Counted from the stretch's first letter, positions 5,009-54,072 are shown. The stretch is DNA of 64,000 bases from Gemmatimonadales bacterium (GCA_037189525.1 JBBCJC010000005.1:480001-544000); one strand, 5' to 3'. Numbers and translations: made by a program. The notes: generated from the sequence alone by a model not told the origin.

Positions 5009-5043
5009 AAACAAAAAGCGACCCACAGTGTTTGCGGGTCGCT
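5009..5043 (-). terminator. Intrinsic terminator in the leader of the phhA-like gene (attenuator)
   Basis: AGCGACCCGCA-aacac-TGTGGGTCGCT then TTTTGTTT, directly upstream of the RBS. Confidence 0.8.
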
Positions 5044-5071
5044 GCCAAGTCATGCTGGATCGTTGATTGAT

Positions 5072-5152
5072 CTATGAACGATGCACTCGGCCGCGGCCCC
5101 GAAAGCACTCGAAGCAGCACATAATCCGGCCGACCGTGCAAATCCGATTCAT
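5072..5152 (-). CDS. Putative Cys/Phe-rich attenuation leader peptide MNRICTVGRIMCCFECFRGRGRVHRS
   Basis: 26-aa ORF with 4 Cys and 2 Phe, lying between a TTGCGC-16-TATTAT promoter and the terminator, with alternative 1:2 and 2:3 pairings. Confidence 0.7.
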   Translation of the reverse strand: MNRICTVGRIMCCFECFRGRGRVHRS

Positions 5153-5161
5153 AGTGTCGGA

Positions 5162-5189
5162 ATAATAACGAGGCGCGTTCGCCGCGCAA
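5162..5189 (-). promoter_or_regulatory. Candidate sigma70 promoter for the leader/phhA-like transcript
   Basis: TTGCGC (5189-5184), 16-nt spacer, TATTAT (5167-5162), 9 nt before the leader ATG. Confidence 0.55.
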
Positions 5190-5244
5190 GGCTTGGCGTG
5201 TACCAGGCCTGCAACGCCCGCAAAAGTCGGTTCGAGGGGGCGAG

Positions 5245-6180
5245 TCATCTCTCGCCCAGACGCTCGACCCGGGCGACCATGATCCCGTCCTGCGCCTTGA
5301 TCGAACGGATCCGATTGGCGAGCGGCACCTCGGAGATCTCGACCACCCGCCCCACCAGTGGCGCGTGGAGCAGATGGAGCTTGCCGTTCTGCCAGAGGGC
5401 AAACCCGGTATGCGCCACGTCGAGCCCGCCGAGCGTCGAGGTGGCCGCGATGATATCGCCGTCCTGAATACCGCGGCTCGCCGCCGTGATCCGGGTTTCC
5501 GGAAGGAACCAGCGCGGGTTGGCGGCGGTCAGGGTCTGCTCGATCGTCCTGACGGCCGAGAGGTTGGCGGTATCCGCCAGCTGACGATACGCCGAGACGT
5601 GGCGCGTCATGAACGAGATGGGCTCGTCGTCGGCGACTCCGCCCAGCTTGCGGCTCAGCTGGCGGACCGTGCCCCGGCGTTCGTTGTCCGCCAGCCACTC
5701 GGAGAAGTAGTGCAGCCGGCTGGTATAGCCGTCGAGAACACCCCCGCGGTATCGGATCGCCTCGAGGTACTGTTCGTACCGCCGGCGCGCTGCCACCGGG
5801 TCCTCGAGCGCAGCAACCCCATCGTTCCGGATGAACCGGACCAGCGCCAGCACGTTCTCGATGAAGGTGACGCAATCCAGTTCGCGGAGGTTGACCACCA
5901 CGCGTTCGGGCCCCGGCACTTCGAGCGTACCCGGTATGTAGGTCGCCCCCACGAAGGTCTCGCCCAGGCGCGCGATGGCTTGGCCGAGTGGCAGGGTATC
6001 CAGACGCCGGGCGGCACCCCAGCGCACCTTGGTTTCGAGGATCTTCCAATCGGCGGCCGTCCACGCCGTGCCGGGAATGGAATCCGGACGGCTCTGCGCC
6101 ATGAGCGGAGCGGCCGTCAGCATCAGGCCCGCGAGCACGCGAGTCGTTCCGCGCCACCGGGGGTTCGTGATGGTCCTCAT
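5245..6180 (-). CDS. DUF1460 / NlpC-P60-like N-acetylmuramoyl-L-alanine amidase
   Basis: Signal peptide, ELDCVTFIENV (catalytic Cys), RLHYFSEW, GLDVAHTG, LLHA. Confidence 0.85.
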   Translation of the reverse strand: MRTITNPRWRGTTRVLAGLMLTAAPLMAQSRPDSIPGTAWTAADWKILETKVRWGAARRLDTLPLGQAIARLGETFVGATYIPGTLEVPGPERVVVNLRELDCVTFIENVLALVRFIRNDGVAALEDPVAARRRYEQYLEAIRYRGGVLDGYTSRLHYFSEWLADNERRGTVRQLSRKLGGVADDEPISFMTRHVSAYRQLADTANLSAVRTIEQTLTAANPRWFLPETRITAASRGIQDGDIIAATSTLGGLDVAHTGFALWQNGKLHLLHAPLVGRVVEISEVPLANRIRSIKAQDGIMVARVERLGER

Positions 6181-6300
6181 GCGGTGAAAGGTAACGGTAA
6201 CGCCTCCGTCCATGCCCCGCGACTGGTCCGGATCGAGAAACGATACCCCATATAGTGAAGACGTCCGGCGCGGAGGTTTGTTAAGGCTGGCAGCTACCCG

Positions 6301-6339
6301 AACGAAAGCCGGCACTCCGATCAGACGGGGTGCCGGCTC
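6301..6339 (-). terminator. Intrinsic terminator after the TPR gene
   Basis: AGCCGGCAC...GTGCCGGCT stem followed by TTCGTT on the minus strand. Confidence 0.6.
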
Positions 6340-6364
6340 GCCGCTGCGGACCTACCGACAACCG

Positions 6365-7306
6365 CTACGGGACTCTAACGTCAGCAGTATCCCGCACCAT
6401 CGGTACCATATCGACCGCCGGCTGCACGGTCTCGACCGAGTCGGTCTTGCTCATGCTGTCCCGCCACATCCCGACCTCCAGCCGGAAGAGCTCGGCCAGA
6501 AAGGTCAGATCCGCGCCGTCGGGCTCGGTGCTGTCGCCGACCAGCGCCGTTACACGCGCCAGGTTCGCAACCGCATTGGCATACCCGCTATCGGCCCGAA
6601 CCGCCGCTTCGTACGCCCGCTTGGCCGAGACGGGGTGCCCCGCCCGCTCGAGCGCGACGCCCAGGTTGTTCTGGAAGACAGGCGACGTCGATCGCAACTG
6701 AACCGCCCGCGCCAACGGTCCGAGGGCCAAACTCGGCTCTCCCTGCTCGAGAAAGAACGAGCCGTAGTTGTTGAGCGTCCAGACGTCGTTGTCATCCATT
6801 ACCAGCGCGCGGCGGTAGGTCTCGCTCGCCTGCTCCGCAAGACCTTGCTTGGCCTGCGCCCGCGCCAACAGCCGGAGTGCCTCGGTCGACGACGAGTCGA
6901 TGGTCAATGCGTAGGTGGCGCGCTCCGCCGCCTCTCCAGGACGGCCCCAATCGAGCAGGGCACGGGCGACGCCGATGTAGTGGCTCGCGACGCCGGGTTC
7001 GAGCGCAATGGCTCGGTCGAAAGCCTTGACCGCATCGCGGTAGCGACCACGCCGGGACGCCTCGAGCCCCAGGGTGCGCGCGTCGGCGGCGGTCACGACG
7101 GTCGCGATCGACGGAACTACAACGGTCCGAGGTTCGACCCGCGGAGGCAATCCGCCGGCCGGCAGCGCAACGGCAACCGGTTCCTCGGGCGGCAGCTGCG
7201 TAATCACGACCGGCTTGGATCCGGGCACGTCGCAGGCGCCCAGCACCGGCAGCAGCAACCAGGTCATCATCGAAGGGCGACGAAACGGCAGGATAAAGCG
7301 GGTCAT
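6365..7306 (-). CDS. Tetratricopeptide repeat lipoprotein
   Basis: AAGGAGG RBS, lipobox LGAC, TPR motifs (TLNNYGSFF, FQNNLGVAL, AYEAAVRAD). Confidence 0.85.
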   Translation of the reverse strand: MTRFILPFRRPSMMTWLLLPVLGACDVPGSKPVVITQLPPEEPVAVALPAGGLPPRVEPRTVVVPSIATVVTAADARTLGLEASRRGRYRDAVKAFDRAIALEPGVASHYIGVARALLDWGRPGEAAERATYALTIDSSSTEALRLLARAQAKQGLAEQASETYRRALVMDDNDVWTLNNYGSFFLEQGEPSLALGPLARAVQLRSTSPVFQNNLGVALERAGHPVSAKRAYEAAVRADSGYANAVANLARVTALVGDSTEPDGADLTFLAELFRLEVGMWRDSMSKTDSVETVQPAVDMVPMVRDTADVRVP

Positions 7307-7366
7307 ACATCCTCCTTGAGAGTGGAACCCGCGGGCGGCAATCGACCGCGAGGTCGCAACTCTCAA

Positions 7367-7384
7367 AGGCAAACCCGCGGCCGG
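7367..7384 (-). promoter_or_regulatory. sigma54 -24/-12 promoter upstream of the TPR gene
   Basis: ccGGccgcgggtttGCct: GG-N10-GC with TTTGC. Confidence 0.6.
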
Positions 7385-7469
7385 ACGATCAGCGTTCCGG
7401 CTCGCGCGGCCAAGTCATTGCGACACAACAGGTTGAGCGGACCGGCGGTACTCCCTGAACAATCCGGTT

Positions 7470-7519
7470 GTGTCCACGCGGACACGGAGCGCGGGAAGCG
7501 GGCGTGTCCCGGCGGACAC
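7470..7519. promoter_or_regulatory. Tandem palindromic enhancer sites GTGTCC-N4-GGACAC (x2)
   Basis: Perfect palindromes at 7470-7485 and 7504-7519, 34 bp apart, about 90-140 bp upstream of the sigma54 box and directly after the bEBP gene. Confidence 0.65.
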
Positions 7520-7530
7520 GTGGAGGAATC

Positions 7531-8880
7531 TCAGGTGGGTGAGGTAATGCCCAGACGACGCATGATCTTGAGCAGGCTGGCATGATCGGCCAGACCGAGG
7601 GCATCGGCCGTCCTGGTGATCTGCCAGTCGTGCCGTTCCAGCGCGCTCAGCACGATATCCCGCTCGGCGTCGACCTTTTGCTCCTGGTAGCTGCGGTTAG
7701 CCGCACCGTCCGGAGTCGGGCCGCTCAGCACCGGCGGCAGGTGCTCGAGGCGAATCATCTCACCCGATGCCGCCACCACGATCCGTTCGACCATGTTGCG
7801 CAACTCGCGCACGTTGTTACGGCGCCAGTCGTATCGGACCAGCCGATCCCGCACTTCGCCCGAGAGGCGTTTTGGCAGCAGGCCGAAACGCTGGCAGACA
7901 TCCTCGATGAACTGCTCGGCAAGCGGGATGACATCTTCCTTGCGGTCCCGGAGCGGCGGAACCTGCAGGGTATGCACGTTGAGGCGATAGAGCAGATCCT
8001 CGCGGAAGGTGCCGTTCCGGGTGGCGGCATCGAGATCCCGATGGGTGGCCGCAACGACTCGGATGTCGACCGCAACGGTGCGCGACGCACCCAGCGGCAT
8101 CACCTCGCGCTGCTCGAGGACGCGGAGCAGCTTGGCCTGCCCGGCCAGCGGAAGCTCGCCGACCTCATCGAGGAAGAGCGTGCCACCCGCCGCCATTTGA
8201 AAGGCGCCGCGCCGAGCGGCCACCGCACCGGTAAAGGCGCCCTTCTCGTGCCCGAACAGTTCGCTCTCCACCAAGTGCTCCGGCAGCGCCGCGCAGTTGA
8301 TCGGCACGAACGGTCCGAGCGCCCGCGGGCTCAACCGATGGATCTCACGCGCCACCAGTTCCTTACCGGTCCCGCTCTCTCCCAGGATCAGCACCGTGCT
8401 CGGCACCGGCGCGGTGCGGCCGATGGCATCGCGCAAGGTCTGCATCGCCGCGCTCCGGCCACGGAGCGACGACTCGCCGAGTTGCGCCTGCAGGGCAACA
8501 ACCTCGCGGCGCAGCCGGGCCCGTTCGATGGCGCTTGCCACCTCCTGCACCACGCGCTCCATCGGCTCCGCCTTGTCGATGAAACCGGCCGCGCCGAGCC
8601 GGACCGCCTGGATGCAGCGATCGAAATCACCGGTGCCGGTATACACGATGACCGGCGTTTCAATGCCGCGATGCGCCAGTTCGCGCAACACTTCGAAGCC
8701 ATCGATTCCGGGCATTTCGAGGTCGAGTATGACACAATCGATCTCGCTCTGCTCGAGCGCGGCAAGCGCCGCCGGGCCGTTGGTCGCGGTCTCGACCTGA
8801 TGCCCGGCCAGGCGCTGCAAGTCATACGCATACGACTCGGCCAGCGCCGGAACATCATCGACGATCAGCAGGCGACTCAT
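7531..8880 (-). CDS. sigma54-dependent response regulator (NtrC/AtoC family)
   Basis: Receiver domain (LDLEMPG), Walker A GESGTGKE, ELFGHEKGAFTGA, FLDEVGEL, C-terminal HTH. Confidence 0.95.
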   Translation of the reverse strand: MSRLLIVDDVPALAESYAYDLQRLAGHQVETATNGPAALAALEQSEIDCVILDLEMPGIDGFEVLRELAHRGIETPVIVYTGTGDFDRCIQAVRLGAAGFIDKAEPMERVVQEVASAIERARLRREVVALQAQLGESSLRGRSAAMQTLRDAIGRTAPVPSTVLILGESGTGKELVAREIHRLSPRALGPFVPINCAALPEHLVESELFGHEKGAFTGAVAARRGAFQMAAGGTLFLDEVGELPLAGQAKLLRVLEQREVMPLGASRTVAVDIRVVAATHRDLDAATRNGTFREDLLYRLNVHTLQVPPLRDRKEDVIPLAEQFIEDVCQRFGLLPKRLSGEVRDRLVRYDWRRNNVRELRNMVERIVVAASGEMIRLEHLPPVLSGPTPDGAANRSYQEQKVDAERDIVLSALERHDWQITRTADALGLADHASLLKIMRRLGITSPT

Positions 8881-10508
8881 GCCGTTGGTAACTCCACCCG
8901 AAATGTGGTCCCCTTCCCGACGGTCGTCTCCACGGCAAGCGATCCGCCCAGGTCGCTCACCAGGCGACGAACGACCGACAGGCCGAGCCCGGTGCCGTGC
9001 GGCTTGGTGGTAAAGAAGTCATCGAAAGCGCGCTTGAGTTCCTCCGGCGTCATCCCCGCTCCTGAATCGACGATTTCGATCGCGACCTCTCCCGGCGAGC
9101 CCGGACGGACCCGGAGTACGACCTGCCCGGCTGGCGCCGCTGCATCGACGGCGTTGCCCACCAGATTCTCGAGGATGCGCCGCACCGATATCGGATCGGC
9201 CCGCAGCATCGGCTCCGGAGTCATCGACTCGGTCCGAATCACCACACCATCCCGTGCCGCTCCCTGAGCCAACTCCGCGATCAGGCGGTTCAACTCCACC
9301 CCGGCCGGCCCCGATGCAGGCGATAGCTTGGCATAGTTGCGCGCCAGGTCCTCCAGGTAAACGACACTCGACTCCATCGTGCCGCGACGCGCGCGGTAGA
9401 CATCGGCCAGTTGCTCCGGATTCTGATCGACCGTCTGCCCGAAATGACGAATCGCGTGGCGAATGGGTGCCAGGCCGTTCTTAATGTCGTGGGTCACCTG
9501 CCGCGCCAGGTCGCCGACGGCGGCACGGCGCTCCGATTCGCGCAGACGGGCGGCGCCTGCCCGAAGACGAGAAGTCATTGCCCCGAGGAGACGGCTCAAT
9601 CCGCCAATCTCGTCGTCCCGATCGGTGTCGAAGGTAACGTCCAACCGATCCAGATCGACGCGCTCGGTCTTCTCCGCCAGCTCCGTAATCGGGCGCGCCA
9701 GCGCATTCGCCACGATCACGGCAATGCCAACTGCAATCAACAACGCCAGGCCCAGGACGATGACAAACCAGCGATCAACCCGCCGGGTCAGCTCACGAGC
9801 CGGAGCCGGATCTCGTACGATGGCTACCACCCCCGACTCCACTCGCTCCGTGCTCTCATCGATCATCAGCACCGGGATCCGCGCGGCAACCAGATCCGGC
9901 AGCTGCGCATTGTCAACCAGTGCGGCGCGCACTTCGGGATCCGTTCCGATCCCGGCAATGGCCATCGAATCGAATGCTGTTCCGCCGACCAGGAAGTACC
10001 GGTGTCCGAGTATCGCAAACGAGTCGACGACCGCCAGGACACTGCGTTCGCCCTCCGCCGTCCGCACCCGGGCCAGCGAAAGACTGTCCCTTCGATTTCT
10101 GAGCGCCTGCGGCACGAACGGCGCCGCTCGACCGTAATCGTTCCGAAACTGCCCCGAACTCAGCACTCGTCCCGCGCTATCGTGAAGGGTCAGGGATGCG
10201 AGACCCGCCAGCCGCATTGCGTTCCCGGCCCAGTCGAGCAACCAACCCGATTCGGCGCCTCCAAGCCGGGCCAGGCGGAACCGGTTGTCGGCCGCAAGGT
10301 CGCTGCCCAGCTGCTGGACCCGCGACCGGACACGATCGCGCTCCGCACGCAATTCCGATTCGATCGTCGACGCCAGCGCGCCGACCCGCCTGCTTCCCTC
10401 TTCCTCCAGCCGGGTCTGCATTTCCGCGCGGACCCGCCAACCGAACAGGGCCAGAGGCAACACCGCAACGGCGGCAAACGCGAGGATGAGGCGAGTCCGG
10501 AAGGTCAC
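8877..10508 (-). CDS. Sensor histidine kinase (HAMP, NtrY-like)
   Basis: ARQVTHDIKNGLAP H-box, NLVGNAVDA, DSGAGM, FFTTKPHGTGLGL. Coupled to the bEBP gene. Confidence 0.92.
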   Translation of the reverse strand: MTFRTRLILAFAAVAVLPLALFGWRVRAEMQTRLEEEGSRRVGALASTIESELRAERDRVRSRVQQLGSDLAADNRFRLARLGGAESGWLLDWAGNAMRLAGLASLTLHDSAGRVLSSGQFRNDYGRAAPFVPQALRNRRDSLSLARVRTAEGERSVLAVVDSFAILGHRYFLVGGTAFDSMAIAGIGTDPEVRAALVDNAQLPDLVAARIPVLMIDESTERVESGVVAIVRDPAPARELTRRVDRWFVIVLGLALLIAVGIAVIVANALARPITELAEKTERVDLDRLDVTFDTDRDDEIGGLSRLLGAMTSRLRAGAARLRESERRAAVGDLARQVTHDIKNGLAPIRHAIRHFGQTVDQNPEQLADVYRARRGTMESSVVYLEDLARNYAKLSPASGPAGVELNRLIAELAQGAARDGVVIRTESMTPEPMLRADPISVRRILENLVGNAVDAAAPAGQVVLRVRPGSPGEVAIEIVDSGAGMTPEELKRAFDDFFTTKPHGTGLGLSVVRRLVSDLGGSLAVETTVGKGTTFRVELPTA

Positions 10509-13086: not shown

Positions 13087-13286
13087 GACACCTGCCTTGC
13101 GTTGGGATCCGCCATCCAGCCGGGTCCATTCCGGACCGCCTGCAATCCGTTAAGCATAGTCACGCCGCGGCCGCTTCTGGACTGCAATCCCGGCCGCCGG
13201 GCACCGTCGGCTCCCTTGCAATCGCGCCACGACGGCAGGAGACTTCCAGAGATCGATCGAATGCCACCTGTCTCCGGAGAGGTCCA

Positions 13287-15568: not shown

Positions 15569-15574
15569 CGCGGC

Positions 15575-16975: not shown

Positions 16976-17140
16976 GACAACTCCAGGATACGGTACGGAA
17001 TCAACCTGCATCGACGCCGCCCAATCTAAGCGGGCCTGGCCGCTCCCGGGCTATTTCGAGGCCCCGATCCAAAGTCCGTCAGCTGGACGGCACCCGGTGA
17101 GACTACCTTTCCGATCTATCATTTTTTCCGAGTTAGTTAG

Positions 17141-19243: not shown

Positions 19244-20338
19244 TTAGCGGGACGGTCGCTCGACCGAACCCGGAGGAGCGGCTCGCAAGTACTGCGCGGG
19301 CCACGGCACATCGAGGCCGAGTTCGGCTGCCGCGCGAAGCGGCCAGTAGGGATCACGTAACAGTTGCCGCGCCAGCAGTACCAGATCGGCTTGCCCCGTC
19401 CGGATGACATGATCGGCCTGCGCCGGCGCCGTCAGCAGCCCCACAGCCCCGGTACGGACGTTGGCTTCGCGACGGATCCGCTCGGAGAGACCGGTCTGAT
19501 AGCCGGGCCCGATCGGAATCCGGACCCCGCTGACATTCCCGCCCGACGAACAGTCGATCAGATCCACCCCCTGTTCGACCAGGATCCGCGACAGCCGAAC
19601 CGAATCGTCCAGCGTCCAGCCTCCCTCGACCCATTCCGTCGCCGAGATCCGTACGAAGAGCGGTAAGTGCTCGGGCCAGTGGCGGCGGACTTCCATCACC
19701 ACGTCGCCCAGCAATCGAATCCGGTTTTCGAAGCTCCCGCCGTACTCGTCGGTCCGCTGATTGCTGACGGGCGAGAGAAACTCGTGCAGCAGGTACCCGT
19801 GGGCCGCGTGAATCTCGACGACTTCGAACCCCGCTTGGCGCGCACGGCGAGCGGCCGCGCCGAACCCGAGCACCACGTTCCGGAGGCCGGCCAGATCGAG
19901 AGCTTCCGGCCTCGGATAGGTATCGCTGAACGCAACGGCACTCGGCCCCACCACCTGCCAGCCGTCGCGATCGGGCGGCACCGTTCCCTGCACCGGATGC
20001 CAGGGGCGATAGGTACTGGCCTTCCGGCCGGCATGCGCCAGCTGCACACCCGGCACCGCGCCCTGCTGCTTGATGAAGGCCGTAACCCGGGCGAGAAAGG
20101 GCACGTGTTCGTCGTCCCAGATTCCCAGGTCTTCCGGACTGATACGCCCCTCGGGCAACACGGCCGCCGCCTCGGTCAGCACCAGCCCCGCGCCGCCCAC
20201 GGCTCGGCTGCCGAGATGCACCAGATGCCAGTCGTTGGCAAATCCGTTCTCACTCGAATATTGACACATCGGAGACACCACGATGCGATTGGGCAGGGTC
20301 ACCCCGCGAATCGCGAGCGGTTCGAACAGGCTCGTCAT
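19244..20338 (-). CDS. NADH:flavin oxidoreductase (Old Yellow Enzyme, YqjM/NamA type)
   Basis: NRIVVSPMCQYS, QLAHAGRKAS, EIHAAHGYLLHEFLSP, YGGSFENRIR. Confidence 0.95.
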   Translation of the reverse strand: MTSLFEPLAIRGVTLPNRIVVSPMCQYSSENGFANDWHLVHLGSRAVGGAGLVLTEAAAVLPEGRISPEDLGIWDDEHVPFLARVTAFIKQQGAVPGVQLAHAGRKASTYRPWHPVQGTVPPDRDGWQVVGPSAVAFSDTYPRPEALDLAGLRNVVLGFGAAARRARQAGFEVVEIHAAHGYLLHEFLSPVSNQRTDEYGGSFENRIRLLGDVVMEVRRHWPEHLPLFVRISATEWVEGGWTLDDSVRLSRILVEQGVDLIDCSSGGNVSGVRIPIGPGYQTGLSERIRREANVRTGAVGLLTAPAQADHVIRTGQADLVLLARQLLRDPYWPLRAAAELGLDVPWPAQYLRAAPPGSVERPSR

Positions 20339-20416
20339 GGTATTGCAGTTGGTTGGGACGACGTTAGGCACATCGGGGCGGCCTGCCGCGCTGCGACGCC
20401 GGCTCCACCCCGATGG

Positions 20417-21466
20417 TCAGGCACCACCCCCGACGGGGGTCGAACTCAATCGACCGATGACCTGGTCGGCAAAGCGTTCCATCTCTTCTGCCTGCGGGCT
20501 GAATTGTAATAGCAGAAGGTCGACCCCGGCGGCCTCGAATGCCGCAATCCGATCGGCGACCTGTGCCGGCGTACCGACCAGGCCTGCCCGCAATCCCCGA
20601 TTGGACACCGAGTACTCCTCGAGGGACACCTGGCGCTCGAGCCGGGTATTGGCCACCCAGTCGCGATAGTTCCCGTAGCCAGGCGATCCCGGCGCCACGT
20701 TGGTAATCCGTTCCAACTCGCGCGCCGCCTCCTGCTCGGAATCCCGGACGATGACGAAGGCCGCCATCCCGAACGAAAGGGGCGGGAGACCCGTCGCGTC
20801 CCTGAGCGCCGAAAGCTCATCGATCCGCGCCGAGATAACGTCGAGGGGATCGCCGTGCATGACGTAGGCATCGCACTGCCGGCTGATCAATTGCTTCGCC
20901 GCCGGCGACTCGCCGCCCGCGTAGATCGGCGGCCGCGGACGGCGCACCGGTTTGGGTTCGAGAATGGTCTGGTCGACCTGATAGTAGGCCCCATCGAAGG
21001 AGAACTCCGGCTCCCGCCACACGCCGTCGACGACCGAAAGCCACTCGGCGGTGCGCGCGTACCGGTCGTCGTGCTGATCGAAGCGCACGCCGTATCGCCT
21101 CGCTTCGTCGGCCCACCAGGAGGAGACGACGTTGAGGGCCAGCCGGCCGCCCGCAATCCGATCGATCGCTGCCGCCTGCTTGGCAAGGATCGCCGGCTGA
21201 TGAAAGGTCGGCCGCACCGCGACCATCAGTTCGAGGCGCCGGGTCACCGCGGCCAGCGCCGCGGCCGTCGACCACGCATCCAGCGACGGCGCGGTGATCC
21301 CCTTGATGTCATTGAGGAACAACTCGGCGATCAGAGTCAGGTCGTAGCCGATCTCTTCACTTCGGCGCGCCAGGCGGCTGACGTATTCCCACGACGGATC
21401 CATCCCCTCATCCGGAACGTTGCGCAACCACCCGCCGAACACCGGAAGCCAGTACCCGAAGCGCAT
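20417..21466 (-). CDS. LLM-class flavin-dependent monooxygenase (SfnG/SsuD-like)
   Basis: MRFGYWLPVFGG, LDAWSTAAALAAVT, GRLALNVVSSW, YAGGESPA, LVGTPAQVADRI. Confidence 0.9.
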   Translation of the reverse strand: MRFGYWLPVFGGWLRNVPDEGMDPSWEYVSRLARRSEEIGYDLTLIAELFLNDIKGITAPSLDAWSTAAALAAVTRRLELMVAVRPTFHQPAILAKQAAAIDRIAGGRLALNVVSSWWADEARRYGVRFDQHDDRYARTAEWLSVVDGVWREPEFSFDGAYYQVDQTILEPKPVRRPRPPIYAGGESPAAKQLISRQCDAYVMHGDPLDVISARIDELSALRDATGLPPLSFGMAAFVIVRDSEQEAARELERITNVAPGSPGYGNYRDWVANTRLERQVSLEEYSVSNRGLRAGLVGTPAQVADRIAAFEAAGVDLLLLQFSPQAEEMERFADQVIGRLSSTPVGGGA

Positions 21467-21468
21467 CG

Positions 21469-22455
21469 TCAGGTGCTCGCCGGGGTCACCAACCCGGCCC
21501 GGACTTCGATGTAGTCCACGAAGCGGGCAAACGGATCGAACCCGATCACATTCGGCGCATCCGCCACGAAGTTCGACAGCGCATTGATGTCGTAGAAGTA
21601 GTGCCGGCCGTCGCGCTCATCGATCAGATACTCGATCCCGCCGATGTCGAGCCGAACGTGACGGGCAATCTGCTCGACCTGGGCCACGATCTCCGCCGGC
21701 GGATCGGCCCGTTCGACCCGCATCCCGGTCTTGGGCGCGTCTGCTGCGCAGAAGGTGCGATCCAGCGTCCGCCCTTCGGTCGTCTGGCAGATGTCGGCCG
21801 GACAGAGATTGAACGACTCGCCGGTCGGATACACGTTGATGGCGTAGAGGAACTTGCCGTCGAGCACTTCGACTCGAGTGATCCGGCTGCCCGACAACGG
21901 CGCCAGTTCCTGGACCAATGCCGTTTGATCCAAGCCGAGATCAATCCGCCCGGCCGCCGCCGCCTCGACCAACTGGTCTTCGGTATCGAAACGGACGATT
22001 CCGGCGCCGCTGCCGCCGATATTGGCTTTGACGACGACCGGATACCGGAGTTGTCGAGCCGCCGACGCGGCGCGCGACGCATGATTGATCACCAAGGCGC
22101 GCGGCACCGGCAGACCCAACTCCGCCAGGACCTCGACCTGGAAGGCCTTCGAGATCTCGAGCGCATAGACCGCCGAGCCGTTGACGATCGGCGTGCCGGT
22201 GCGTTCGACGTGGCGAAGCCAGTTGAGGGTATGGAACGTGGTCTGGCCATGGCCACGCAGATAGGCGGAGGGACTGTTGCGATTGACGACCAGGGAGTAG
22301 CGGCGCGTCAGATCAGCCGGATCGTACTCGTGGGCTGCCGCATCGAGCGCCACCCATGGAATCCCCCGCCGATCGAGTTCCGCAAAGAGTGGCTTGAACC
22401 AGTCCGGATGCTCATGGTATACGGCAACGGGAAGCGTCCCCGATGGAACCGACAT
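21469..22455 (-). CDS. ATP-grasp ligase (RimK / glutathione-synthetase-like)
   Basis: YPVVVKANIGGSGAGI, LVQE, GGIEY, YDINALSNF. Confidence 0.88.
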   Translation of the reverse strand: MSVPSGTLPVAVYHEHPDWFKPLFAELDRRGIPWVALDAAAHEYDPADLTRRYSLVVNRNSPSAYLRGHGQTTFHTLNWLRHVERTGTPIVNGSAVYALEISKAFQVEVLAELGLPVPRALVINHASRAASAARQLRYPVVVKANIGGSGAGIVRFDTEDQLVEAAAAGRIDLGLDQTALVQELAPLSGSRITRVEVLDGKFLYAINVYPTGESFNLCPADICQTTEGRTLDRTFCAADAPKTGMRVERADPPAEIVAQVEQIARHVRLDIGGIEYLIDERDGRHYFYDINALSNFVADAPNVIGFDPFARFVDYIEVRAGLVTPAST

Positions 22456-22513: not shown

Positions 22514-22612
22514 TTAGCGACAACAACAACAGCCCTGGTGGCCCGACCCGACGAGGCGGGAGGCGCACCCAGGGAGTACAGCGGGGGTGATGGAGCGGCG
22601 TACAACCAGCAT
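22514..22612 (-). CDS. Leaderless polycysteine leader peptide MLVVRRSITPAVLPGCASRLVGSGHQGCCCCR
   Basis: 32-aa ORF ending TGT-TGT-TGT-TGT-CGC-TAA. ATG is 6 nt after the -10 box; the stop is 58 nt before the ATP-grasp start. Confidence 0.8.
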   Translation of the reverse strand: MLVVRRSITPAVLPGCASRLVGSGHQGCCCCR

Positions 22613-22618: not shown

Positions 22619-22647
22619 ACTCTAAGCGACCGCCCGACCGGGGTCAA
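22619..22647 (-). promoter_or_regulatory. sigma70 promoter producing a leaderless transcript
   Basis: TTGACC-17 nt-TAGAGT-6 nt-ATG. Confidence 0.75.
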
Positions 22648-22719: not shown

Positions 22720-23319
22720 TCAGCCGCGCCAGGTCACTTTGTCATCGAGCGGGCGCCGAACGACATCCGGAGGAACACTGCCCGGATGGCCAAGGATAAA
22801 AAAGCCGAGTGGTCTGGAGGGCGCGGGCACTCCGACGAACTCCGCAACATGCGGCAGCACAGCCTGCGCACCCGTCGACCACTGCCCGGCCAGGCCGAGC
22901 GCCGTCGCGGCCAGGTGGAGATTCTGGACCGCGCCGCCAAAGGCGAGGAGCTCTTCCCATTCCGGCATCGCGAACGACCCGTCGGGCTTGAGGCCCGGCT
23001 TGAGCGTGAGCGCGATCCAGACCGGCACTTTCCACACCTTGTCTCGGCTGGTCTCGAAGGCCTCCTGCGTGAAATTCCCCCGCGCTTCGGCCTGGATCCG
23101 GTAGGCTTCGCCAAAGGCTTCACCCAGCGCCCGCCGTCCCTCACCGGTGAAGACGGTGAAGTGCCAGGGCTCGGTCTTGCCGTGGCTGGGCGCCCACCGG
23201 GCGGCCTCGAGCACCTGCTCGATCAACGAGGGGTCGACCGGGTCGGGCTTGAGAAAGGGCATCTTGTGGCTGCGACGGGCTCGCATCAGAGCAAGCAGGT
23301 CGGCTGCGTCGATTGCCAT
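22720..23319 (-). CDS. Nitroreductase family protein (YdjA-like)
   Basis: RRSH, ARWAPSHGKTEPWHF, AVQNLHLAATALGLAGQWST. Confidence 0.9.
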   Translation of the reverse strand: MAIDAADLLALMRARRSHKMPFLKPDPVDPSLIEQVLEAARWAPSHGKTEPWHFTVFTGEGRRALGEAFGEAYRIQAEARGNFTQEAFETSRDKVWKVPVWIALTLKPGLKPDGSFAMPEWEELLAFGGAVQNLHLAATALGLAGQWSTGAQAVLPHVAEFVGVPAPSRPLGFFILGHPGSVPPDVVRRPLDDKVTWRG

Positions 23320-41116: not shown

Positions 41117-41134
41117 CCGTAGCGATCTGATGAT

Positions 41135-44393: not shown

Positions 44394-44421
44394 CGGTCCG
44401 GCCCGATCGACCGGCACGGAC

Positions 44422-45327: not shown

Positions 45328-45371
45328 GGGTAACCCCGAGGCCGAGGTGGAGATGTATCGTTGGAAATGAG

Positions 45372-45401
45372 ACGGTCCCGCACCCGAAGGTGCGGGACCG
45401 T
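45372..45401 (-). terminator. Stable hairpin after the AKR gene
   Basis: ACGGTCCCGCACC / GGTGCGGGACCGT 13-bp stem with a UUCG loop on the minus strand. Confidence 0.55.
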
Positions 45402-45421
45402 TCAAAACTACTCGACTGGCC

Positions 45422-46396: not shown

Positions 46397-46872
46397 GGAC
46401 CGACTACCTCTCGAGAGTAGGGTGACAACGCGATCTCGGATACACCAAAGTACTACGCCCTTCCCCCCGGCGCCGTTGAGCCGCAGCCCCGGGGTTGGGG
46501 GCCGGCCCCGCTAACCCCGCCCGCCTGCCGCCCCGTCGGGCCGGGAGCTCCCCACTGAAGCACCAGCCCGGGATCCCGGTCTGATCTTCGCTTTCTACGC
46601 ATCTCGGATTGGCGCATCTACCGCCATATCTGAACGAAGTTCGTCCACCGCATGATCGTGGTGTGTCCACGAATGGAACGAGCGCGTTATAAGGGGTATC
46701 ACGACTGCGTGATCAATCGCCCGTGAAGTTTGCACAGCCTGCCGGTTCTCGCGCATTGCGCTGCGAAGGCATCAGGCGCGTCAGGTACGCACGACGACCC
46801 GGCGGCACGCGAACGCAACGGGACCGCCGTCTGCGCGGCGAATGAATTGATCGGGATCTGCGAGGAGATAAC

Positions 46873-49047: not shown

Positions 49048-49191
49048 GCCGGTAACCGGCAGACCGGCGATCTCGCCGGCCCTTCTCCCCCCGAGGCTGC
49101 CTTCCACGGCGCCCTCGGGGGGTTCTGCTACCGGCTGGTCTTGGACACCCGATAGGCTAGATTGCATGGCACCGCCTCGGAGTACGGATCC

Positions 49192-50382
49192 ATGCGCTTG
49201 CTGGCCGTCACCGCTGTGAGTCTGCTCGCCTCAGCCGCCGCTCCCCAGCTGGCAGCGCAGCAGGAAAGTGCTGTGGAGCGCGCCGCCCGGCAGTCGCGGG
49301 AAGCCGAGGCGCGCGGCCTGGCCGAGCCGTTCAAAGGCATCACCACCGACGGCACACCCCTTACCGGCCTCTTTCCGATTCGTTCGACCGGCGTCTCCAC
49401 CGCACCAGCGGTAGAGGCCGCACGCGCCTTCCTCAAATCGCTGACGCCGATCCAGCAGGCCAAAACGCTGTTTGCCGACGACGATCCCGAATGGCGCAAA
49501 TGGATGAACCAGCACTTTTACGTGCGCCAGGGTATCGGCTTCAAGGAAATGAGCGATGCGCAGCGCGATGCCGCCTTTGCCATGCTCGGCGCCGCGCTGA
49601 GCGCCAAGGGCCTGCGCCTGAGCCGCGACATCATGCGGCTCAACCATACCCTGGCGGAACTGACCGGAAACTTCGACGAGTACGGCGAATGGCTCTACTG
49701 GATTACGATCATGGGCGAGCCGTCGGAGACCGAGCCGTGGGGCTGGCAGCTCGACGGGCACCACCTGATTATCAACTACTTCGTGCTGGGCGATCAGGTG
49801 GTCATGACCCCGATGTTCGTCGGCTCGGAACCGGTTACGGCCACGTCGGGCAAGTATCAGGGCGTTTCCATCCTGCAGCAGGAGCAAAACGACGGCCTGG
49901 CCCTGGTCAACGCCCTGATGCCCGGCCAGCGGAAAGCGGCGATTCTCGATAGCGCCAAAGCCGGGGTCAACTCCCTGACCGAGGCATTCCGGGACAACGT
50001 CGTGCTGGACTATGCCGGCGTTTCCGCGCGCTCCTTCTCGCCCAGCCAGCGTCGGCAGTTACTCGACCTGATCGGCCTCTTCGTCGGCAACATGCGGGAA
50101 GGCCACGCCAAGGTACGCATGGCGGAGGTCGAAGCGCACCTCGATCGAACCCATTTCGCGTGGATCGGTAAAACGGAACTCGATGCCGTGTTCTACTACC
50201 GGATCCACAGCCCCGTCATTCTGATCGAGTTCGACCATCAACGCCCCATCGCACTCCGCCGGCTCTATGGTACGGGGCCGACCCCACAACACATTCACGC
50301 CGTCGTCCGAACTCCGAACGGTAACGACTACGGGAAAGACCTGCTGCGCGAACATCATCGCCGGCACAAACATCCACACTGA
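49192..50382 (+). CDS. DUF3500 domain protein
   Basis: [43 protein letters not shown]. Confidence 0.88.
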
Positions 50383-50416
50383 ATTCCATGCTCTACTTTC
50401 ACCTCCGGGAGCCGTC

Positions 50417-51829
50417 ATGACGACCGAAGTCAGTCTTCTCGCGCAGGTCGACGCCATGTTCGACCAGGCCGCGGCCCTGACACCGCACGATCCGACTTTG
50501 CTCGCGCATATCAAGGCATGCAATGCCGTCTATCAGATGACCTTTCCGATCCGCCGCGACGACGGCACGATCGAAGTGATCCATGCCTGGCGCGCAGAGC
50601 ACAGCCATCACCGGATGCCGACCAAGGGCGGCATTCGGTACTCGATGGCGGTGACGGCCGATGAAGTGATGGCGCTGGCTTCGCTGATGACGTTCAAGTG
50701 CGCGCTGCTGGACGTGCCCTTCGGCGGCGCCAAGGGCGGTATTCGGATTGCGCGCCACAAATATTCCGACGCCGAACTCGAGCGGATTACCCGCCGCTAC
50801 ACCTTCGAGCTCTGGCGCAAGAACTTCATCGGACCCGGCGTCGATGTCCCGGCGCCAGACTACGGCACCAGTTCCCGCGAAATGGCCTGGATTGCCGACA
50901 CCTACCGCAGCCTGAGCAACGACCTCAACGCGATGGCCTGCGTGACCGCCAAGCCGGTTTCGCAAGGCGGTATTCGCGGCCGGAACGAAGCGACCGGCCG
51001 AGGCGTGATGTTTGGCCTCCGGGAAGCCTGTAACGTCGCCGAGGATATGAAGAAACTTGGCTTGGGCCCCGGCCTGGCCGGAAAACGAATCGTGATTCAG
51101 GGACTCGGCAACGTCGGGTATCACGCCGCCAAGCTGCTCCAGGAGCAGGGCGCCGTCCTGGTCGGCCTGGCGGAGTATGAGGGCGCCATCAGCAATCCCA
51201 AAGGGCTGGACGTCGACCGGGTCATGGAGCACCGGAAAAACACCAAATCGATCCTCGGATTTCCGGGAGCCCAGGATATCCCGCAGTCGGCAGCTGCGCT
51301 CGAACTCGAGTGCGACATCCTCGTCCCCGCCGCGCTCGAAAACGTGATCACCGCCGAGAATGCGCCCCGCATCAAGGCCAAGATCATCGGCGAAGCGGCC
51401 AACGGGCCGACCACGGCCGAAGCTGACGGCATCCTCAAGAGCCGGGGCGTCTACATCATTCCCGACTTTTACCTCAACGCAGGCGGGGTGACCGTCTCGT
51501 ACTTCGAATGGCTCAAGAACCTCTCGCACGTCCGCTTCGGCCGGATGCAGCGGCGATTCGAAGAACAATCCAACCTTGGCATCCTGAACCTGGTGCAGCA
51601 GAGCACCGGACGCAGCATCGACGCGGCCGAGTTGAGCCGCATTGCTCATGGCGCGAGCGAAGAAGATCTGGTCAACTCCGGCCTCGAAGACTCCATGGCC
51701 GTTGCCTACCACCAGATTCGCGATATCCTGATCCGGCCCAAGGGCCCGACCGATCTCCGAACCGCGGCGTTCATTTCCGCGATCGACAAGATCGCCGTGA
51801 GCTATCAGGAGCTGGGCCTGTTCCCGTAA
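50417..51829 (+). CDS. Glutamate dehydrogenase (Glu/Leu/Phe/Val family)
   Basis: PTKGGIRY, VPFGGAKGG, DVPAPD, QGLGNVG, EAANGP, LNAGGVTVSYFEW. Confidence 0.95.
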   Translation: MTTEVSLLAQVDAMFDQAAALTPHDPTLLAHIKACNAVYQMTFPIRRDDGTIEVIHAWRAEHSHHRMPTKGGIRYSMAVTADEVMALASLMTFKCALLDVPFGGAKGGIRIARHKYSDAELERITRRYTFELWRKNFIGPGVDVPAPDYGTSSREMAWIADTYRSLSNDLNAMACVTAKPVSQGGIRGRNEATGRGVMFGLREACNVAEDMKKLGLGPGLAGKRIVIQGLGNVGYHAAKLLQEQGAVLVGLAEYEGAISNPKGLDVDRVMEHRKNTKSILGFPGAQDIPQSAAALELECDILVPAALENVITAENAPRIKAKIIGEAANGPTTAEADGILKSRGVYIIPDFYLNAGGVTVSYFEWLKNLSHVRFGRMQRRFEEQSNLGILNLVQQSTGRSIDAAELSRIAHGASEEDLVNSGLEDSMAVAYHQIRDILIRPKGPTDLRTAAFISAIDKIAVSYQELGLFP

Positions 51830-51846
51830 GCGAAGGCGGATGAACG

Positions 51847-51885
51847 AAGCGGCCCGTGCGACCGGCAAGGTCACACGGGCCGCTT
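51847..51885. terminator. Hairpin between convergent gdh and tRNA-Cys
   Basis: AAGCGGCCCGTG / CACGGGCCGCTT stem with short T runs on both strands. Confidence 0.6.
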
Positions 51886-51903
51886 TGCCTTTGGACAGAA
51901 AAG

Positions 51904-51974
51904 AGGCGCCGACCGGAATCGAACCGGTGATTAGGGTTTTGCAGACCCTTGCCTTGCCACTTGGCCACGGCGCC
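51904..51974 (-). tRNA. tRNA-Cys (GCA), CCA not encoded
   Basis: GGCGCCG acceptor, AGGGT-CTGCAAA-ACCCT anticodon arm, GGTTCGATTCC T-loop, U73 discriminator. Confidence 0.97.
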
Positions 51975-51978
51975 CGGA

Positions 51979-53205
51979 CTATCGGTCGAGCAGTTCCTCG
52001 ACGATCGCGATGTATTCCCGCACCAGCGCATCGTGGTACGGCCCGCTGGCCTTGGCCGCGAAGCCGCTGCGCACGGCGTGTACCCGCCCTTCCCGATCGA
52101 GGAAGAACGTCGCGGGCCAGGTATTCAGGTTGACGGCCTGCGGCAGCTTGGCAGCCACGTCGCTCGGCTCTCCCGCCACCAGGTACGGATACTCGATTCC
52201 GTACTTCGCGACGAAGGCGCGCAACCGGCCGAGATCCTCCAGCTGTTCCGCCTCTTCGAAATCGAGCGCCACCACTTCCAGTCCCCGATCCCGATAGCGG
52301 CGGTACAGGTCCGCCAGGAACGGCGCCTCGTCGTGGCAATTGGGGCACCAGCTGCCTGTCACGTTGACTACGACCACCTTCCCGGCAAACCGCGCGTCCC
52401 GCTCGGTTACCAGACGCCCGTCGAGATCGGGAAAGGCAAACCGGAACGGCTCAGCCGAGTCGCGAACCCGGGTGTGAGTCGCGGCATCGGCCGGCTCGGG
52501 CAAGCCCCGCGCCCGGGCCAGATCGGGACGAAGCGCCTCGAAGATCCGAGGTGCTCCGCGGGGCGAATGCAGGGTGAGCCGGAGCGTTCCATCCGCCTGC
52601 GGATCGACCTCCAGCCGCGCCGGCCGAGTCCCCGCGAAATGACTGAGCTCGAATCGGGTGCCCGTCCAGGTGCCGGTCAGGGCGCCTGCATCGCCATCGA
52701 CCCGAAGGATGGTGGCCGACACCGCCACTCCCTGCTGCCGGACCACGAACCGCCAGGCGCGCTCGCCCTTGGCGGTTTCGGCCGGCAGGTACCACTCACC
52801 ATCGATGTTGGGCGCCGGGACGGCAGATCGCGCGGTTGCCGTTCCGACCGGCGCGGCCTCGACCGGATGGAATCCGCGCCGTTCGTTGCCATAGCGGCCC
52901 CGGAAGGCCCCGTCCGAGAGCACCCCTTCGAACCTCGTCGCAAGGTGCGCAAATTCGACCACCACGGAATCGCCCTGTCGGCGCACGGCGGTCGAGGTCA
53001 CCGGCACGTCGCCGTTGTAGAGCCGGACCAGCCGGCGCCCGGACTCCGAAGCCCACTCGAGCGGAAAGTCGATGGCGAGCGAGTCATACCGAATCGTTCC
53101 GGTCCAGCGGCCCTGCGGCTCCTGCGCTTCGAGCAAAGCCCCGCCACCCGCCGCGAATCCGAGGACGAGGGCAGACCATGTGGCGCGTTTGAACGTCGCT
53201 GACAT
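51979..53205 (-). CDS. TlpA-family thiol-disulfide oxidoreductase with N-terminal extension
   Basis: GSWCPNCHDE, WPATFFLDREG; signal peptide; ATG overlaps the upstream stop. Confidence 0.9.
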   Translation of the reverse strand: MSATFKRATWSALVLGFAAGGGALLEAQEPQGRWTGTIRYDSLAIDFPLEWASESGRRLVRLYNGDVPVTSTAVRRQGDSVVVEFAHLATRFEGVLSDGAFRGRYGNERRGFHPVEAAPVGTATARSAVPAPNIDGEWYLPAETAKGERAWRFVVRQQGVAVSATILRVDGDAGALTGTWTGTRFELSHFAGTRPARLEVDPQADGTLRLTLHSPRGAPRIFEALRPDLARARGLPEPADAATHTRVRDSAEPFRFAFPDLDGRLVTERDARFAGKVVVVNVTGSWCPNCHDEAPFLADLYRRYRDRGLEVVALDFEEAEQLEDLGRLRAFVAKYGIEYPYLVAGEPSDVAAKLPQAVNLNTWPATFFLDREGRVHAVRSGFAAKASGPYHDALVREYIAIVEELLDR

Positions 53206-53678
53206 CAGCGGCCTCCCGGCAGCTGCGCAACGAGCGTAGCCGTCCGCGGTGGCAGGCAGGTGGTCTCGGTGCAGGCCTGATAACGAACTTTGAGCGCGGC
53301 ACCGGCCACAGGCGCCGGCGAGCCGACCCGAACCGGCACCACGAATCGCGGCCGTCCGTCGTAGACCTCGACCGGAATCCCGAACGCCGACGTTTCCTGA
53401 ACGATCGGCGCCGGGCCGGTGACCGCTCCGGCCAGGGAAACCGACTCGGCACCGGGCGCGATTCGCAGTGGAAACGGCCCGCCAGACGTTTGTGTCAGCG
53501 AATACACTTTCCACCCGGGGTCGATCGAGGCCGTCACCGCCAGGGTGACCACCTCGGCATCACCACCACGGGTGGGTACCACGGCTACCGACCAGCGAAC
53601 CGGATCGGGACCCTGGGCCACGACACCCGACACCACGACCGCGGATAGCCAGACAACCAGCTTCAGTGTGACCTGCAT
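53205..53678 (-). CDS. Stand-alone DsbD N-terminal-domain protein
   Basis: IDPGWKVYS, YQACTETTCLPP; signal peptide; GAGG RBS. Confidence 0.85.
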   Translation of the reverse strand: MQVTLKLVVWLSAVVVSGVVAQGPDPVRWSVAVVPTRGGDAEVVTLAVTASIDPGWKVYSLTQTSGGPFPLRIAPGAESVSLAGAVTGPAPIVQETSAFGIPVEVYDGRPRFVVPVRVGSPAPVAGAALKVRYQACTETTCLPPRTATLVAQLPGGR

Positions 53679-53741
53679 TTCGTCTCTTTCCTCACCCCGA
53701 GTACCGACGTCCGTTCGAGACTGCGTATTCGGGTAGGCCAC

Positions 53742-53775
53742 AACGAAAACGGCCCACCCGTGAACGGGTGGGCCG
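53742..53775 (-). terminator. Intrinsic terminator in the leader of the dsbD-N/tlpA/tRNA-Cys unit (attenuator)
   Basis: CGGCCCACCCG-ttca-CGGGTGGGCCG-TTTTCGTT. No long gene upstream on this strand (the neighbour is divergent). Confidence 0.82.
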
Positions 53776-53819
53776 GAAGCGTTTGACTGCGCGCCGCCGT
53801 GGCGCAATCGACTGTCGTA

Positions 53820-53891
53820 CTATAGCCGCGCGCCGCCCCACCCGTTTCCGAGGGGACAACAACAGACAGCCTGAGCGCGGACCAGCGACAT
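53820..53891 (-). CDS. Polycysteine attenuation leader peptide MSLVRAQAVCCCPLGNGWGGARL (alternative in-frame ATG at 53942)
   Basis: TGT-TGT-TGT run, GGAG RBS; contains AACGGGTGGG, complementary to the terminator 5' arm. Confidence 0.78.
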   Translation of the reverse strand: MSLVRAQAVCCCPLGNGWGGARL

Positions 53892-54072
53892 GGATGATGC
53901 TCCGAACGTAAATGAACTCACGTCGGACAATAATCGGGACATGACGAACTTGTAAAGTGCGCCCCGGACACCCCGCCGTGACGGACAACACCTCGCGGAG
54001 AATCGGGTCGCGACGATAACTTGATGGATCCAACCGCCCCATCACTCCACATCACCTCTGCGAGCCGCGACG

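Follow-up and report, generated by a model that had tools for sequence, protein, structure and literature searches.

Candidate cysteine-sensing leader peptides in a Gemmatimonadales genome

Introduction

Attenuation by leader peptides is a classical theme. In the trp and his attenuators of enterobacteria the regulatory codons lie before or in segment 1 of the leader, the stop codon lies near segment 2, and segments 3 and 4 form an intrinsic terminator (3:4). Leaders that respond to cysteine have been described, too. According to the accessible part of the report by Canestrari et al. (bioRxiv 10.1101/834739), leaderless small open reading frames (sORFs) with polycysteine stretches make several operons of Mycobacterium smegmatis cysteine-responsive; the dissected case, the Ms5788A type, works by sequestration of the Shine-Dalgarno (SD) sequence. 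Leaders with Cys runs and without terminators had already been predicted upstream of actinobacterial cys/cbs operons (Seliverstov et al. 2005, PMC1262725, accessible text). A literature search on attenuation or leader peptides in Gemmatimonas, with most subscription journals outside its coverage, found no paper; Cys leaders were described there for Actinobacteria only. We here discuss three Cys-rich sORFs, R1, R2 and R3, in 64,000 nucleotides (nt) of DNA from a Gemmatimonadales bacterium (GCA_037189525.1, JBBCJC010000005.1:480001-544000). This stretch is called the window; coordinates are window positions unless a contig (C1, C2, etc.) is named. The minus strand encodes all three.

The three sORFs are probably leader peptides of ribosome-mediated attenuators that read charged tRNA-Cys. 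Together with the leader of cysK, outside the window, and probably one or two leaders on contig 2, they would make up a small, dispersed regulon of cysteine or sulfur limitation. The source genome (G000) comprises 4.65 Mb in 16 contigs and is 98% complete; its gene call is rough.

A preliminary description of the window, made from its sequence, had listed three Cys-clustered sORFs, each in the same orientation as the gene or operon behind it. All three were found again at 5152-5072 (R1), 22612-22514 (R2) and 53891-53820 (R3), and the downstream genes, annotated by Pfam, share their orientation. Two intrinsic terminators with antiterminator complements had been proposed; the terminator scan recovered both, behind R1 and R3, and in either leader an upstream segment can pair with the terminator arm region. 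The sORF said to be leaderless behind a promoter is R2, as judged by geometry. That two leaders use TGT alone is true for R3 (three of three Cys codons) and for the run of four in R2; R2 contains an additional TGC, and R1 has TGC only. TGT is indeed the less favoured Cys codon, with a share of 23.7% in called genes. The suspected phylum, Gemmatimonadota, agrees with the titles of the nearest records in a wider scan on R2, Gemmatimonas or Gemmatimonadaceae; the nearest of all, at 93%, is titled uncultured Gemmatimonas.

The ATP-grasp operon and its candidate leader, R2

R2 is the best supported of the three leaders. It comprises the following elements:

22619..22647, minus strand: promoter-like site TTGACC-17-TAGAGT, found by scan; it ends 6 nt before the ATG, which is a leaderless geometry
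22514..22612, minus strand: R2 leader sORF, MLVVRRSITPAVLPGCASRLVGSGHQGCCCCR, 32 codons, with the C-terminus CCCC-R-stop; four TGT codons at 22531-22520
19244..22455, minus strand: R2 operon; gene 1, at 22455-21469, encodes a RimK-like ATP-grasp protein
21466-20417, minus strand: gene 2, luciferase-like monooxygenase (LLM), nearest to SfnG/SsuD, under the equivalog cut-offs
20371-19244, minus strand: gene 3, old yellow enzyme (OYE)/NamA-like flavoprotein (Pfam/NCBIfam)

Orthologs of the ATP-grasp gene, with 59-93% identity, are present in 13 of 40 related genomes searched. At 12 of the 13 loci a co-oriented sORF with at least two Cys lies upstream; at the remaining one (L010) none was found. 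The Cys count ranges from 2 to 8, and in 11 of these sORFs the Cys are consecutive, from CC up to a run of seven. Apart from the Cys the peptide is variable, as is evident from MAMCCCCRPMSSGDGHAYGTGDRG, MIRSLSMAMCCCCCCCRPNSSGD.. and MSGPIGPAPTCCRPPLMCCGRERTIV. Aligned with its counterpart in the relative G005, the R2 sORF shows an indel of 3 nt, in frame.

Nine leaders of the R2 type were folded: L001 (this genome), L003 (G005), L004, L007, L008, L009, L012, L013 and L014. The last seven, from more distant members of the genus, have the classical layout of an attenuator. A promoter of the type TTGCGC-17-TAGACT ends about 7 nt upstream of the ATG, the final Cys codons hold the start of a hairpin (UGUCGCCCGA...UCGGGGGAC), and behind it lies a strong terminator (GGCCGCGAnUCC...UCGCGGCC) with a T-run. 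If in the folds a ribosome masks the Cys codons of these relatives, the freed 3' arm of the hairpin pairs with the 5' arm of the terminator.

A scan with one genome per species yielded 579 relatives, and from these 80 loci were retained. By title, almost all are Gemmatimonadota, Gemmatimonadaceae or Gemmatimonas; a few belong to Acidobacteriota, Hymenobacter or Gemmataceae. A co-oriented upstream sORF with at least four Cys+Met, including at least two Cys, within 8 residues was present at 30 of the 80 loci, as compared to 2 of 80 in the reverse complement and 0.75 of 80 in shuffles. Met alternates with Cys in many of them (MCMCHLMC, LSMQMCMC, CCCMCMCC); CCCICMCC was read on a Blastocatellia contig.

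Rfam was applied to 34 further loci, 33 of them without a Cys/Met sORF; the 34th, L137, has a distal sORF match that was judged to be due to chance. A SAM-II riboswitch (RF00521; SAM, S-adenosylmethionine) was matched 60-210 nt upstream of the gene at 10 of the 34, in five of the ten at gathering score, and a SAM-I riboswitch occupies the corresponding position at one Hymenobacter locus (1/34). The ATP-grasp operon thus appears to be under sulfur-amino-acid control elsewhere, and by three different devices. Their occurrence at one orthologous operon favours a sensor role of the Cys leader over, e.g., that of a precursor of a modified peptide. A stretch reading VVICRLLPPRK recurs at L080, L108, L116, L135 and L141; it lies in SAM-II-like aptamers, several of them just under the gathering cut-off, which suggests a divergent SAM-II subgroup in Gemmatimonadota. 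A literature search on the ATP-grasp/LLM operon found nothing relevant.

Upstream of the R2 unit lies a nitroreductase/BluB-like gene (22720-23319, minus strand), which ends 73 nt before the R2 promoter.

The redoxin operon and its tRNA-Cys gene, R3

The R3 unit has these features:

53927..53956, minus strand: promoter-like site TTTACA-18-TATTGT, found by scan, 35 nt upstream of the R3 ATG
53820..53891, minus strand: R3 leader sORF, MSLVRAQAVCCCPLGNGWGGARL, 23 codons; three TGT codons at 53864-53856, segment 2 at 53844-53833
53740..53776, minus strand: intrinsic terminator with an 11-bp stem, 10 G-C pairs and a T-run (stem in the scan, 53775-53750)
51979..53678, minus strand: R3 operon genes; a DsbD_N-like protein is encoded at 53678-53205, overlapping the start of the redoxin
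53205 (ATG) to 51979, minus strand: secreted TlpA/ResA-like redoxin with a WCPNC motif, 408 aa, no internal Met
51903..51974, minus strand: tRNA-Cys(GCA) at the operon end (Rfam tRNA match 51904-51974; also ARAGORN)

The ATG of R3 is preceded by GGAG (53903-53900), 8 nt upstream, and the predicted leader measures about 30 nt; R3 is therefore not leaderless. Its predicted folds match the 1:2/2:3/3:4 scheme of a textbook terminator attenuator. Shuffled sequences fold less stably than the leader (z = -2.7; none of 200 shuffles was as stable). Hairpin 1:2 begins at the last TGT codon, and segment 2 (CGGGUGGGGCGG) is complementary to the 5' arm of the terminator (CCGGCCCACCCG) at 11 of 12 positions. 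In a transcript truncated before the 3' arm of the terminator, 9 of 10 bases of the 5' arm were paired with segment 2 when the Cys codons were masked by a ribosome; a ribosome at the stop codon gave 5 of 10, and no ribosome at all 4 of 10.

The sORF is free of indels in the two close relatives G021 and G005, where the downstream protein shows 85% and 83% identity, respectively. The three TGT codons are invariant, codons 6-9 vary, and indels of 1 nt and 3 nt occur in the flanks. A separate DsbD_N gene of this type was seen in only 3 of 401 genomes of the family searched, i.e., in these three. Contigs from four DNA runs, aligned to 53600-54000, have no difference listed within the sORF and several in its flanks; the evidence is weak, as the contigs stem from related strains.

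The tRNA-Cys(GCA) gene begins 4 nt past the stop codon of the redoxin and is followed by a strong hairpin (51885-51847). It is kept at the operon end in G021 and G005. Between 51800 and 54000 the promoter scan found the R3 promoter as the only site. The genome has one other credible tRNA-Cys, at C2:795422, with a sequence that differs from the operon copy. A third ARAGORN call (C5:559999-560067) lies inside a called coding gene, has an atypical sequence and is probably false. A literature search for a tRNA-Cys gene in a Cys-attenuated operon, again with most subscription journals outside its coverage, found no paper. At gathering score, the tRNA at 51904-51974 is the sole Rfam match in the whole window; the leaders of R1, R2 and R3 have none.

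cysK and other putative leaders in the genome

The cysteine synthase gene cysK (C3:810146-811033), assigned above the NCBIfam cut-off, has a Cys leader of its own. A promoter TTGACC-17-TAGGCT is followed by cga and ATGATG, again a leaderless-type geometry. The peptide, MMEPVLVVVGIGACCRAGGVCCRHAASTA, contains four Cys (CC..CC), all encoded by TGT, and the terminator ends 16 nt upstream of the gene start, as placed by the rough gene call. A Cys sORF with a terminator was found at 6 of 7 cysK orthologs of relatives (at least 79% identity). In G014 the cysK leader, MATTRKTRSCCCRPTESGDGHGFGPGKRG, aligns over the whole attenuator with leaders of the R2 type; judged by this alignment, one attenuator cassette is common to both.

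Two candidate leaders with terminators lie on contig 2. One, at C2:314712-314795, MMRAPATVGYHMCCCRMCGACIHPGGR, precedes a choice-of-anchor-B/Big_2 protein; the other, at C2:312404-312499, MGYGRRRMCRRWVMCCPPQ.., precedes a protein of 1024 aa and then one of 472 aa. The gene behind C2:314712-314795 has matches at paralog level only (at most 67%) in 40 relatives, and a Cys sORF was seen at 0 of 19 of these loci; comparison with relatives supports neither candidate. The region C2:307670-314795 contains two Cys/Met sORFs with terminators and three genes, and its 1024-aa protein contains one Met and no Cys. It may be a sulfur-spared uptake system.

A scan of 5' leaders for terminators with an upstream sORF also recovered two positive controls. 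One is a His leader (MSAIRGHHHAHHHHGS.., about C1 590478-590685, minus strand), whose terminator is separated from hisG-hisD by 37 nt; the other is a Trp leader (MQQLVTLNLWWWPWRES.., about C3 116295-116515, minus strand), with a terminator upstream of the genes of DAHP synthase and trpE. Leader-peptide attenuation is thus in use in this genome. SAM-II riboswitches lie upstream of metH and of a homocysteine methyltransferase/MTHFR gene. At C1:803880-804292 a Thr-rich sORF (..TKRTGTTSTTFMTKGGMTM..) with a terminator precedes asd and aspartokinase on the plus strand; the minus strand has a SAM-II match under the threshold and, behind it, an operon of thrC-like, small carrier-like and MoeZ genes, whose proteins are Met-poor.

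In G000, at its 98% completeness, neither a PAPS reductase (PF01507) nor a NIR_SIR sulfite reductase (PF01077) was matched, and cysE was not found above cut-off. Assimilatory sulfate reduction may be missing in this organism.

The candidate leader of the PAH-like gene, R1

R1 is the weakest of the three, and its conservation comes from two close relatives. Its elements are:

5162..5189, minus strand: promoter-like hexamers TTGCGC-16-TATTAT, read by eye; the ATG is 9 nt past the -10, i.e., near-leaderless
5072..5152, minus strand: R1 leader sORF, MNRICTVGRIMCCFECFRGRGRVHRS, 26 codons; a hairpin (5118-5093) starts at the Cys-Cys codons (5119-5114)
5008..5043, minus strand: intrinsic terminator with an 11-bp stem and a T-run (stem in the scan, 5043-5017)
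4245..4988, minus strand: Biopterin_H (Pfam), phenylalanine-4-monooxygenase-like (PAH-like) gene, 247 aa, no internal Met

The promoter-like site stays under the threshold of the promoter scan, and its -35 hexamer matches the consensus at 3 of 6 positions; the same TTGCGC is found in R2-type leaders of relatives. In G021 and G005 the sORF is in frame with C5, C12 and C13 invariant, while C16 is replaced by W. The segment 5101-5085, which is the 3' half of the hairpin plus the following bases, can pair with 5051-5036, a stretch that overlaps the 5' arm of the terminator. The stop codon lies about 10 nt past segment 2, as in the classical layout.

Codon choice and methionine content

In the six leaders of G000, 16 of 24 Cys codons are TGT, and in ten R2-type leaders of relatives TGT accounts for 40 of 49, far from the usage in called genes given above. 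The proteins encoded behind the leaders are strikingly poor in Met. The ten of them contain 24 internal Met in 4350 residues, as compared to 73.8 expected from the genome mean (one-sided Mann-Whitney p = 2.5e-4, with genes of one operon not being independent). The PAH-like enzyme, the DsbD_N-like protein, the 408-aa redoxin and the 472-aa protein have no internal Met at all, which holds for 0.8% of the genome's proteins of at least 300 aa. The leader-controlled choice-of-anchor-B protein has 5 Met against 8-12 in four paralogs. The cysK and LLM proteins are not Met-poor. A reverse search that started from 105 Met-poor proteins disclosed no further convincing leader; the four candidates inspected lack both promoter and terminator and seem to run antisense to coding sequence.

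About 2 kb from R3, at 55728-57749 (minus strand), the window contains a paralog of the leader-controlled choice-of-anchor-B protein, with 64% identity to it and 12 Met against its 5; it is one of five paralogs in the genome.

Proposed mechanism and implications

The mechanism that we propose for R3 and R1 is derived from sequence and folds. With Cys-tRNA plentiful, the ribosome would reach the stop codon; either hairpin 1:2 would form or the ribosome would occupy segment 2, and the terminator 3:4 would form. With Cys-tRNA scarce, the ribosome would stall on the Cys codons and cover segment 1, leaving segment 2 to pair with the 5' arm of the terminator, and transcription would read through. 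Read-through at R3 would reach the genes of two periplasmic proteins that resemble thiol-disulfide oxidoreductases, and the second tRNA-Cys gene of the genome; at R1 it would reach the gene of the PAH-like enzyme. R2 would use the same sensor, a leaderless sORF that ends in four TGT codons.

A wider view is more tentative, and we rate its chance somewhat short of even. Gemmatimonadota might possess a sulfur-amino-acid "ribulon" of exchangeable sensors, in which SAM-II, Met/Cys leaders and poly-Cys leaders, with or without terminator, were swapped at one operon. The cassette would have passed from cysK to the ATP-grasp operon or the other way, a tRNA-Cys would reside inside a Cys-attenuated operon, and the proteins of the regulon would have been purged of Met. 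If this is true, shortage of a tRNA makes the cell produce more of that same tRNA, so that the set-point of the sensor is under feedback, and the Met-purged proteins can be made when sulfur is scarce.

The tRNA-Cys gene under a Cys-codon attenuator would be a simple and testable feedback circuit. The ATP-grasp/LLM/OYE operon, the periplasmic redoxins and the PAH-like enzyme are flagged as parts of a response to sulfur limitation. The alternation with SAM riboswitches at orthologous operons offers a natural series in which the replacement of RNA-based by ribosome-based sensors, or the reverse, may be studied. Unannotated sORFs would account for several intergenic regions that look "empty".

Contrary evidence and alternative explanations

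Quite a number of observations speak against attenuation by Cys-tRNA or fail to lend it support. At the genome level, sORFs of 8-70 codons with CCC were counted in intergenic regions of at most 1000 nt. There are eight, and seven of them point the same way as the gene behind them; 100 dinucleotide shuffles gave 2.6 +/- 1.6, and three of these shuffles reach seven. The enrichment is modest. With a looser Cys+Met window of at least 4 it disappears (10 co-oriented versus 8.1 in shuffles); with at least 5, a single match is left, C2:314712-314795. The full-length minimum free energy folds retain the terminator under every ribosome mask and do not decide the matter. For R3, nine more distant loci of homologs of its gene have no Cys sORF. 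For R1, the antiterminator helix also forms without a ribosome or with the ribosome at the stop codon (7, 8 and 8 of 10 over the three states), such an sORF is missing from 18 PAH-like loci at a greater distance, and a PAH-like enzyme has no evident functional link to cysteine. The leaders of both R1 and R3 are known from just three closely related genomes, with near-identical nucleotides and no covariation. In the R2-type leaders of relatives, the truncated transcripts offer the 5' arm of the terminator partners in other ribosome states as well; hence, the stalled state is not separated. R2 itself is followed by no intrinsic terminator in the scan of this genome, and the folded leaders L001 and L003 contain none; according to the alignment, the same applies to G021. 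The R2 leader fold is no more stable than those of shuffles (z = +2.15). Nor is a duplex of poly-Cys codons and SD sequence better than in 500 shuffles: for R2 and two relatives, the fractions at or below the observed value are 0.36, 0.80 and 0.51.

The situation at R2 calls for an explanation of its own. Most likely, this genome and its two nearest relatives have lost the intrinsic terminator and kept the sensor. The sensor might then act by a Rho-dependent or by a translational route. In a Rho-dependent version of the tna type, the ribosome stalled at the Cys codons by the stop would block Rho. The direct adjacency of Cys run and stop codon is consistent with it, as are the missing intrinsic terminator and a leader that is less structured than shuffles; the accessible text of Seliverstov et al. 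2005 (PMC1262725) proposes likewise for terminator-less actinobacterial cys leaders. A clear rut-like window (Rho utilization, C over G) downstream of the R2 sORF was, however, not found. For R2 in this genome, we would rather doubt than endorse the Rho route, yet we take it seriously.

One alternative to attenuation takes the sORFs for chance frames and the conserved elements for plain RNA structures, such as protein- or ligand-controlled terminators, or for ordinary promoters and terminators, with no sensing by ribosomes. The R1-type pattern, three Cys within 6 aa, is indeed frequent in this GC-rich genome, with 98 sORFs, so R1 cannot rest on the pattern alone. Five other CCC sORFs precede unrelated genes (Big_2/choice-of-anchor, RadC/RelA, GFO/ADH oxidoreductase, RecQ and PIN) and, the first excepted, were judged to be chance. 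R1 and R3 are conserved at the nucleotide level, where coding constraint and RNA constraint are inseparable. This alternative is very unlikely, nevertheless. The Cys run is kept in 12 of 13 R2 orthologs despite changing length and flanking residues, any indel within an sORF has a length divisible by three, start codons lie at leaderless distance from -10 hexamers, cysK bears the same device, and the 30 of 80 distant loci contrast with 2 and 0.75 in the controls. Nor does Rfam match any known RNA family at the leaders. As an observation apart, a 62-codon ORF with 14 Cys at C1:210420-210608 (minus strand) adjoins a terminator-like hairpin, with an NtrC-type regulator and a histidine kinase downstream.

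The sORFs could instead encode small Cys-rich peptides with a function of their own, R2 being the precursor of a ribosomally synthesized and post-translationally modified peptide (RiPP) processed by ATP-grasp protein, LLM and OYE, or the peptides binding metals. An ATP-grasp gene immediately preceded by a short ORF, as at R2, is an arrangement typical of RiPPs. There are weak NCBIfam matches to ATP-grasp ribosomal-peptide maturases (E about 1e-6, far under cut-off), and a C-terminal RPMSSGDG.. is conserved among relatives of the genus. A precursor peptide, however, would hardly be found upstream of cysK, as is the same cassette in G014, nor carry a terminator and a hairpin that starts in its Cys codons, nor be replaced by SAM riboswitches in the corresponding position at 11 of 34 loci. 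The best match of the ATP-grasp protein is the RimK family, and the number of Cys varies from 2 to 8. We consider a peptide product scarcely credible. Little more can be said for a nascent Cys-rich peptide that senses metals or redox stress instead of Cys-tRNA, akin to copper-sensing upstream ORFs. The thiol-redox proteins behind R3 (DsbD_N- and TlpA-like) would fit. The tRNA-Cys gene within the R3 unit in all three genomes would not, nor would the device common to cysK and to an operon that is elsewhere under SAM riboswitches. The Cys runs are surrounded by neither His nor conserved peptide motifs, and the preference for the rare TGT matters for decoding, not for the peptide. This version, too, is quite improbable.

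Attenuation by Cys-tRNA thus stays the reading that we favour. Two expectations of the preliminary description bear on it. Cys codons conserved in frame in orthologous leaders were seen at R2 (12 of 13) and in both close relatives at R1 and R3. A frequency above chance was obtained, modestly, for strict CCC runs and was lost with the looser Cys+Met criterion. The idea of a dispersed Cys regulon gained computational support, in particular from cysK with its conserved leader and terminator at 6 of 7 loci.

Comparison with known systems

Cysteine-sensing leaders are experimentally established only in mycobacteria, where the dissected case acts on translation. That an unrelated and little-studied phylum shows the same sensing idea in a terminator/antiterminator form, next to His and Trp attenuators, is what makes the present case worth considering. 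As in the mycobacterial "Cys ribulon", to the extent that it is described in the accessible part of the report (bioRxiv 10.1101/834739), several operons, that of cysK among them, begin with separate short ORFs that contain two or more Cys codons in succession. The predicted start geometry is leaderless at R2 and cysK and nearly so at R1, sensing is proposed to occur by ribosomes that stall at Cys codons, and loci would be controlled separately by one common signal. The differences are equally clear. The phylum is another one, and the likeness noted here is one of design. R1, R3, cysK and the R2-type relatives use intrinsic terminators with antiterminator alternatives, unlike the dissected mycobacterial case, and the pairing of poly-Cys codons with the SD sequence, as in Ms5788A, was looked for at R2 and not found. 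The targets also differ from those named there: ATP-grasp/LLM/OYE, DsbD_N/TlpA, tRNA-Cys and the PAH-like gene. With the leaders of Seliverstov et al. (PMC1262725), those discussed here share runs of Cys codons near the stop; R2 also lacks a terminator, and the Rho route was suggested there. In the accessible text of that paper, the leaders are from Actinobacteria only, without terminator/antiterminator versions and without tRNA-Cys or redox targets.

The four-segment logic is that of the classical attenuators, of which the same genome has its His and Trp examples. Here, in contrast, regulation would depend on cysteine, the leaders match none of the leader families in Rfam, and in three sORFs the start codon coincides with the predicted transcript start or adjoins it. 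The SAM-II riboswitch resembles the Cys leaders in its position before orthologous ATP-grasp operons (10 of 34 loci) and controls metH and related genes in this organism. It differs from them in that the RNA itself binds a ligand and no translation is involved, and Rfam finds no SAM-II at R1, R2 or R3. In short, the sensing principle is known from Actinobacteria; here the phylum is another one, terminators are present at most loci, the targets are new, and one of the units contains a tRNA-Cys gene.

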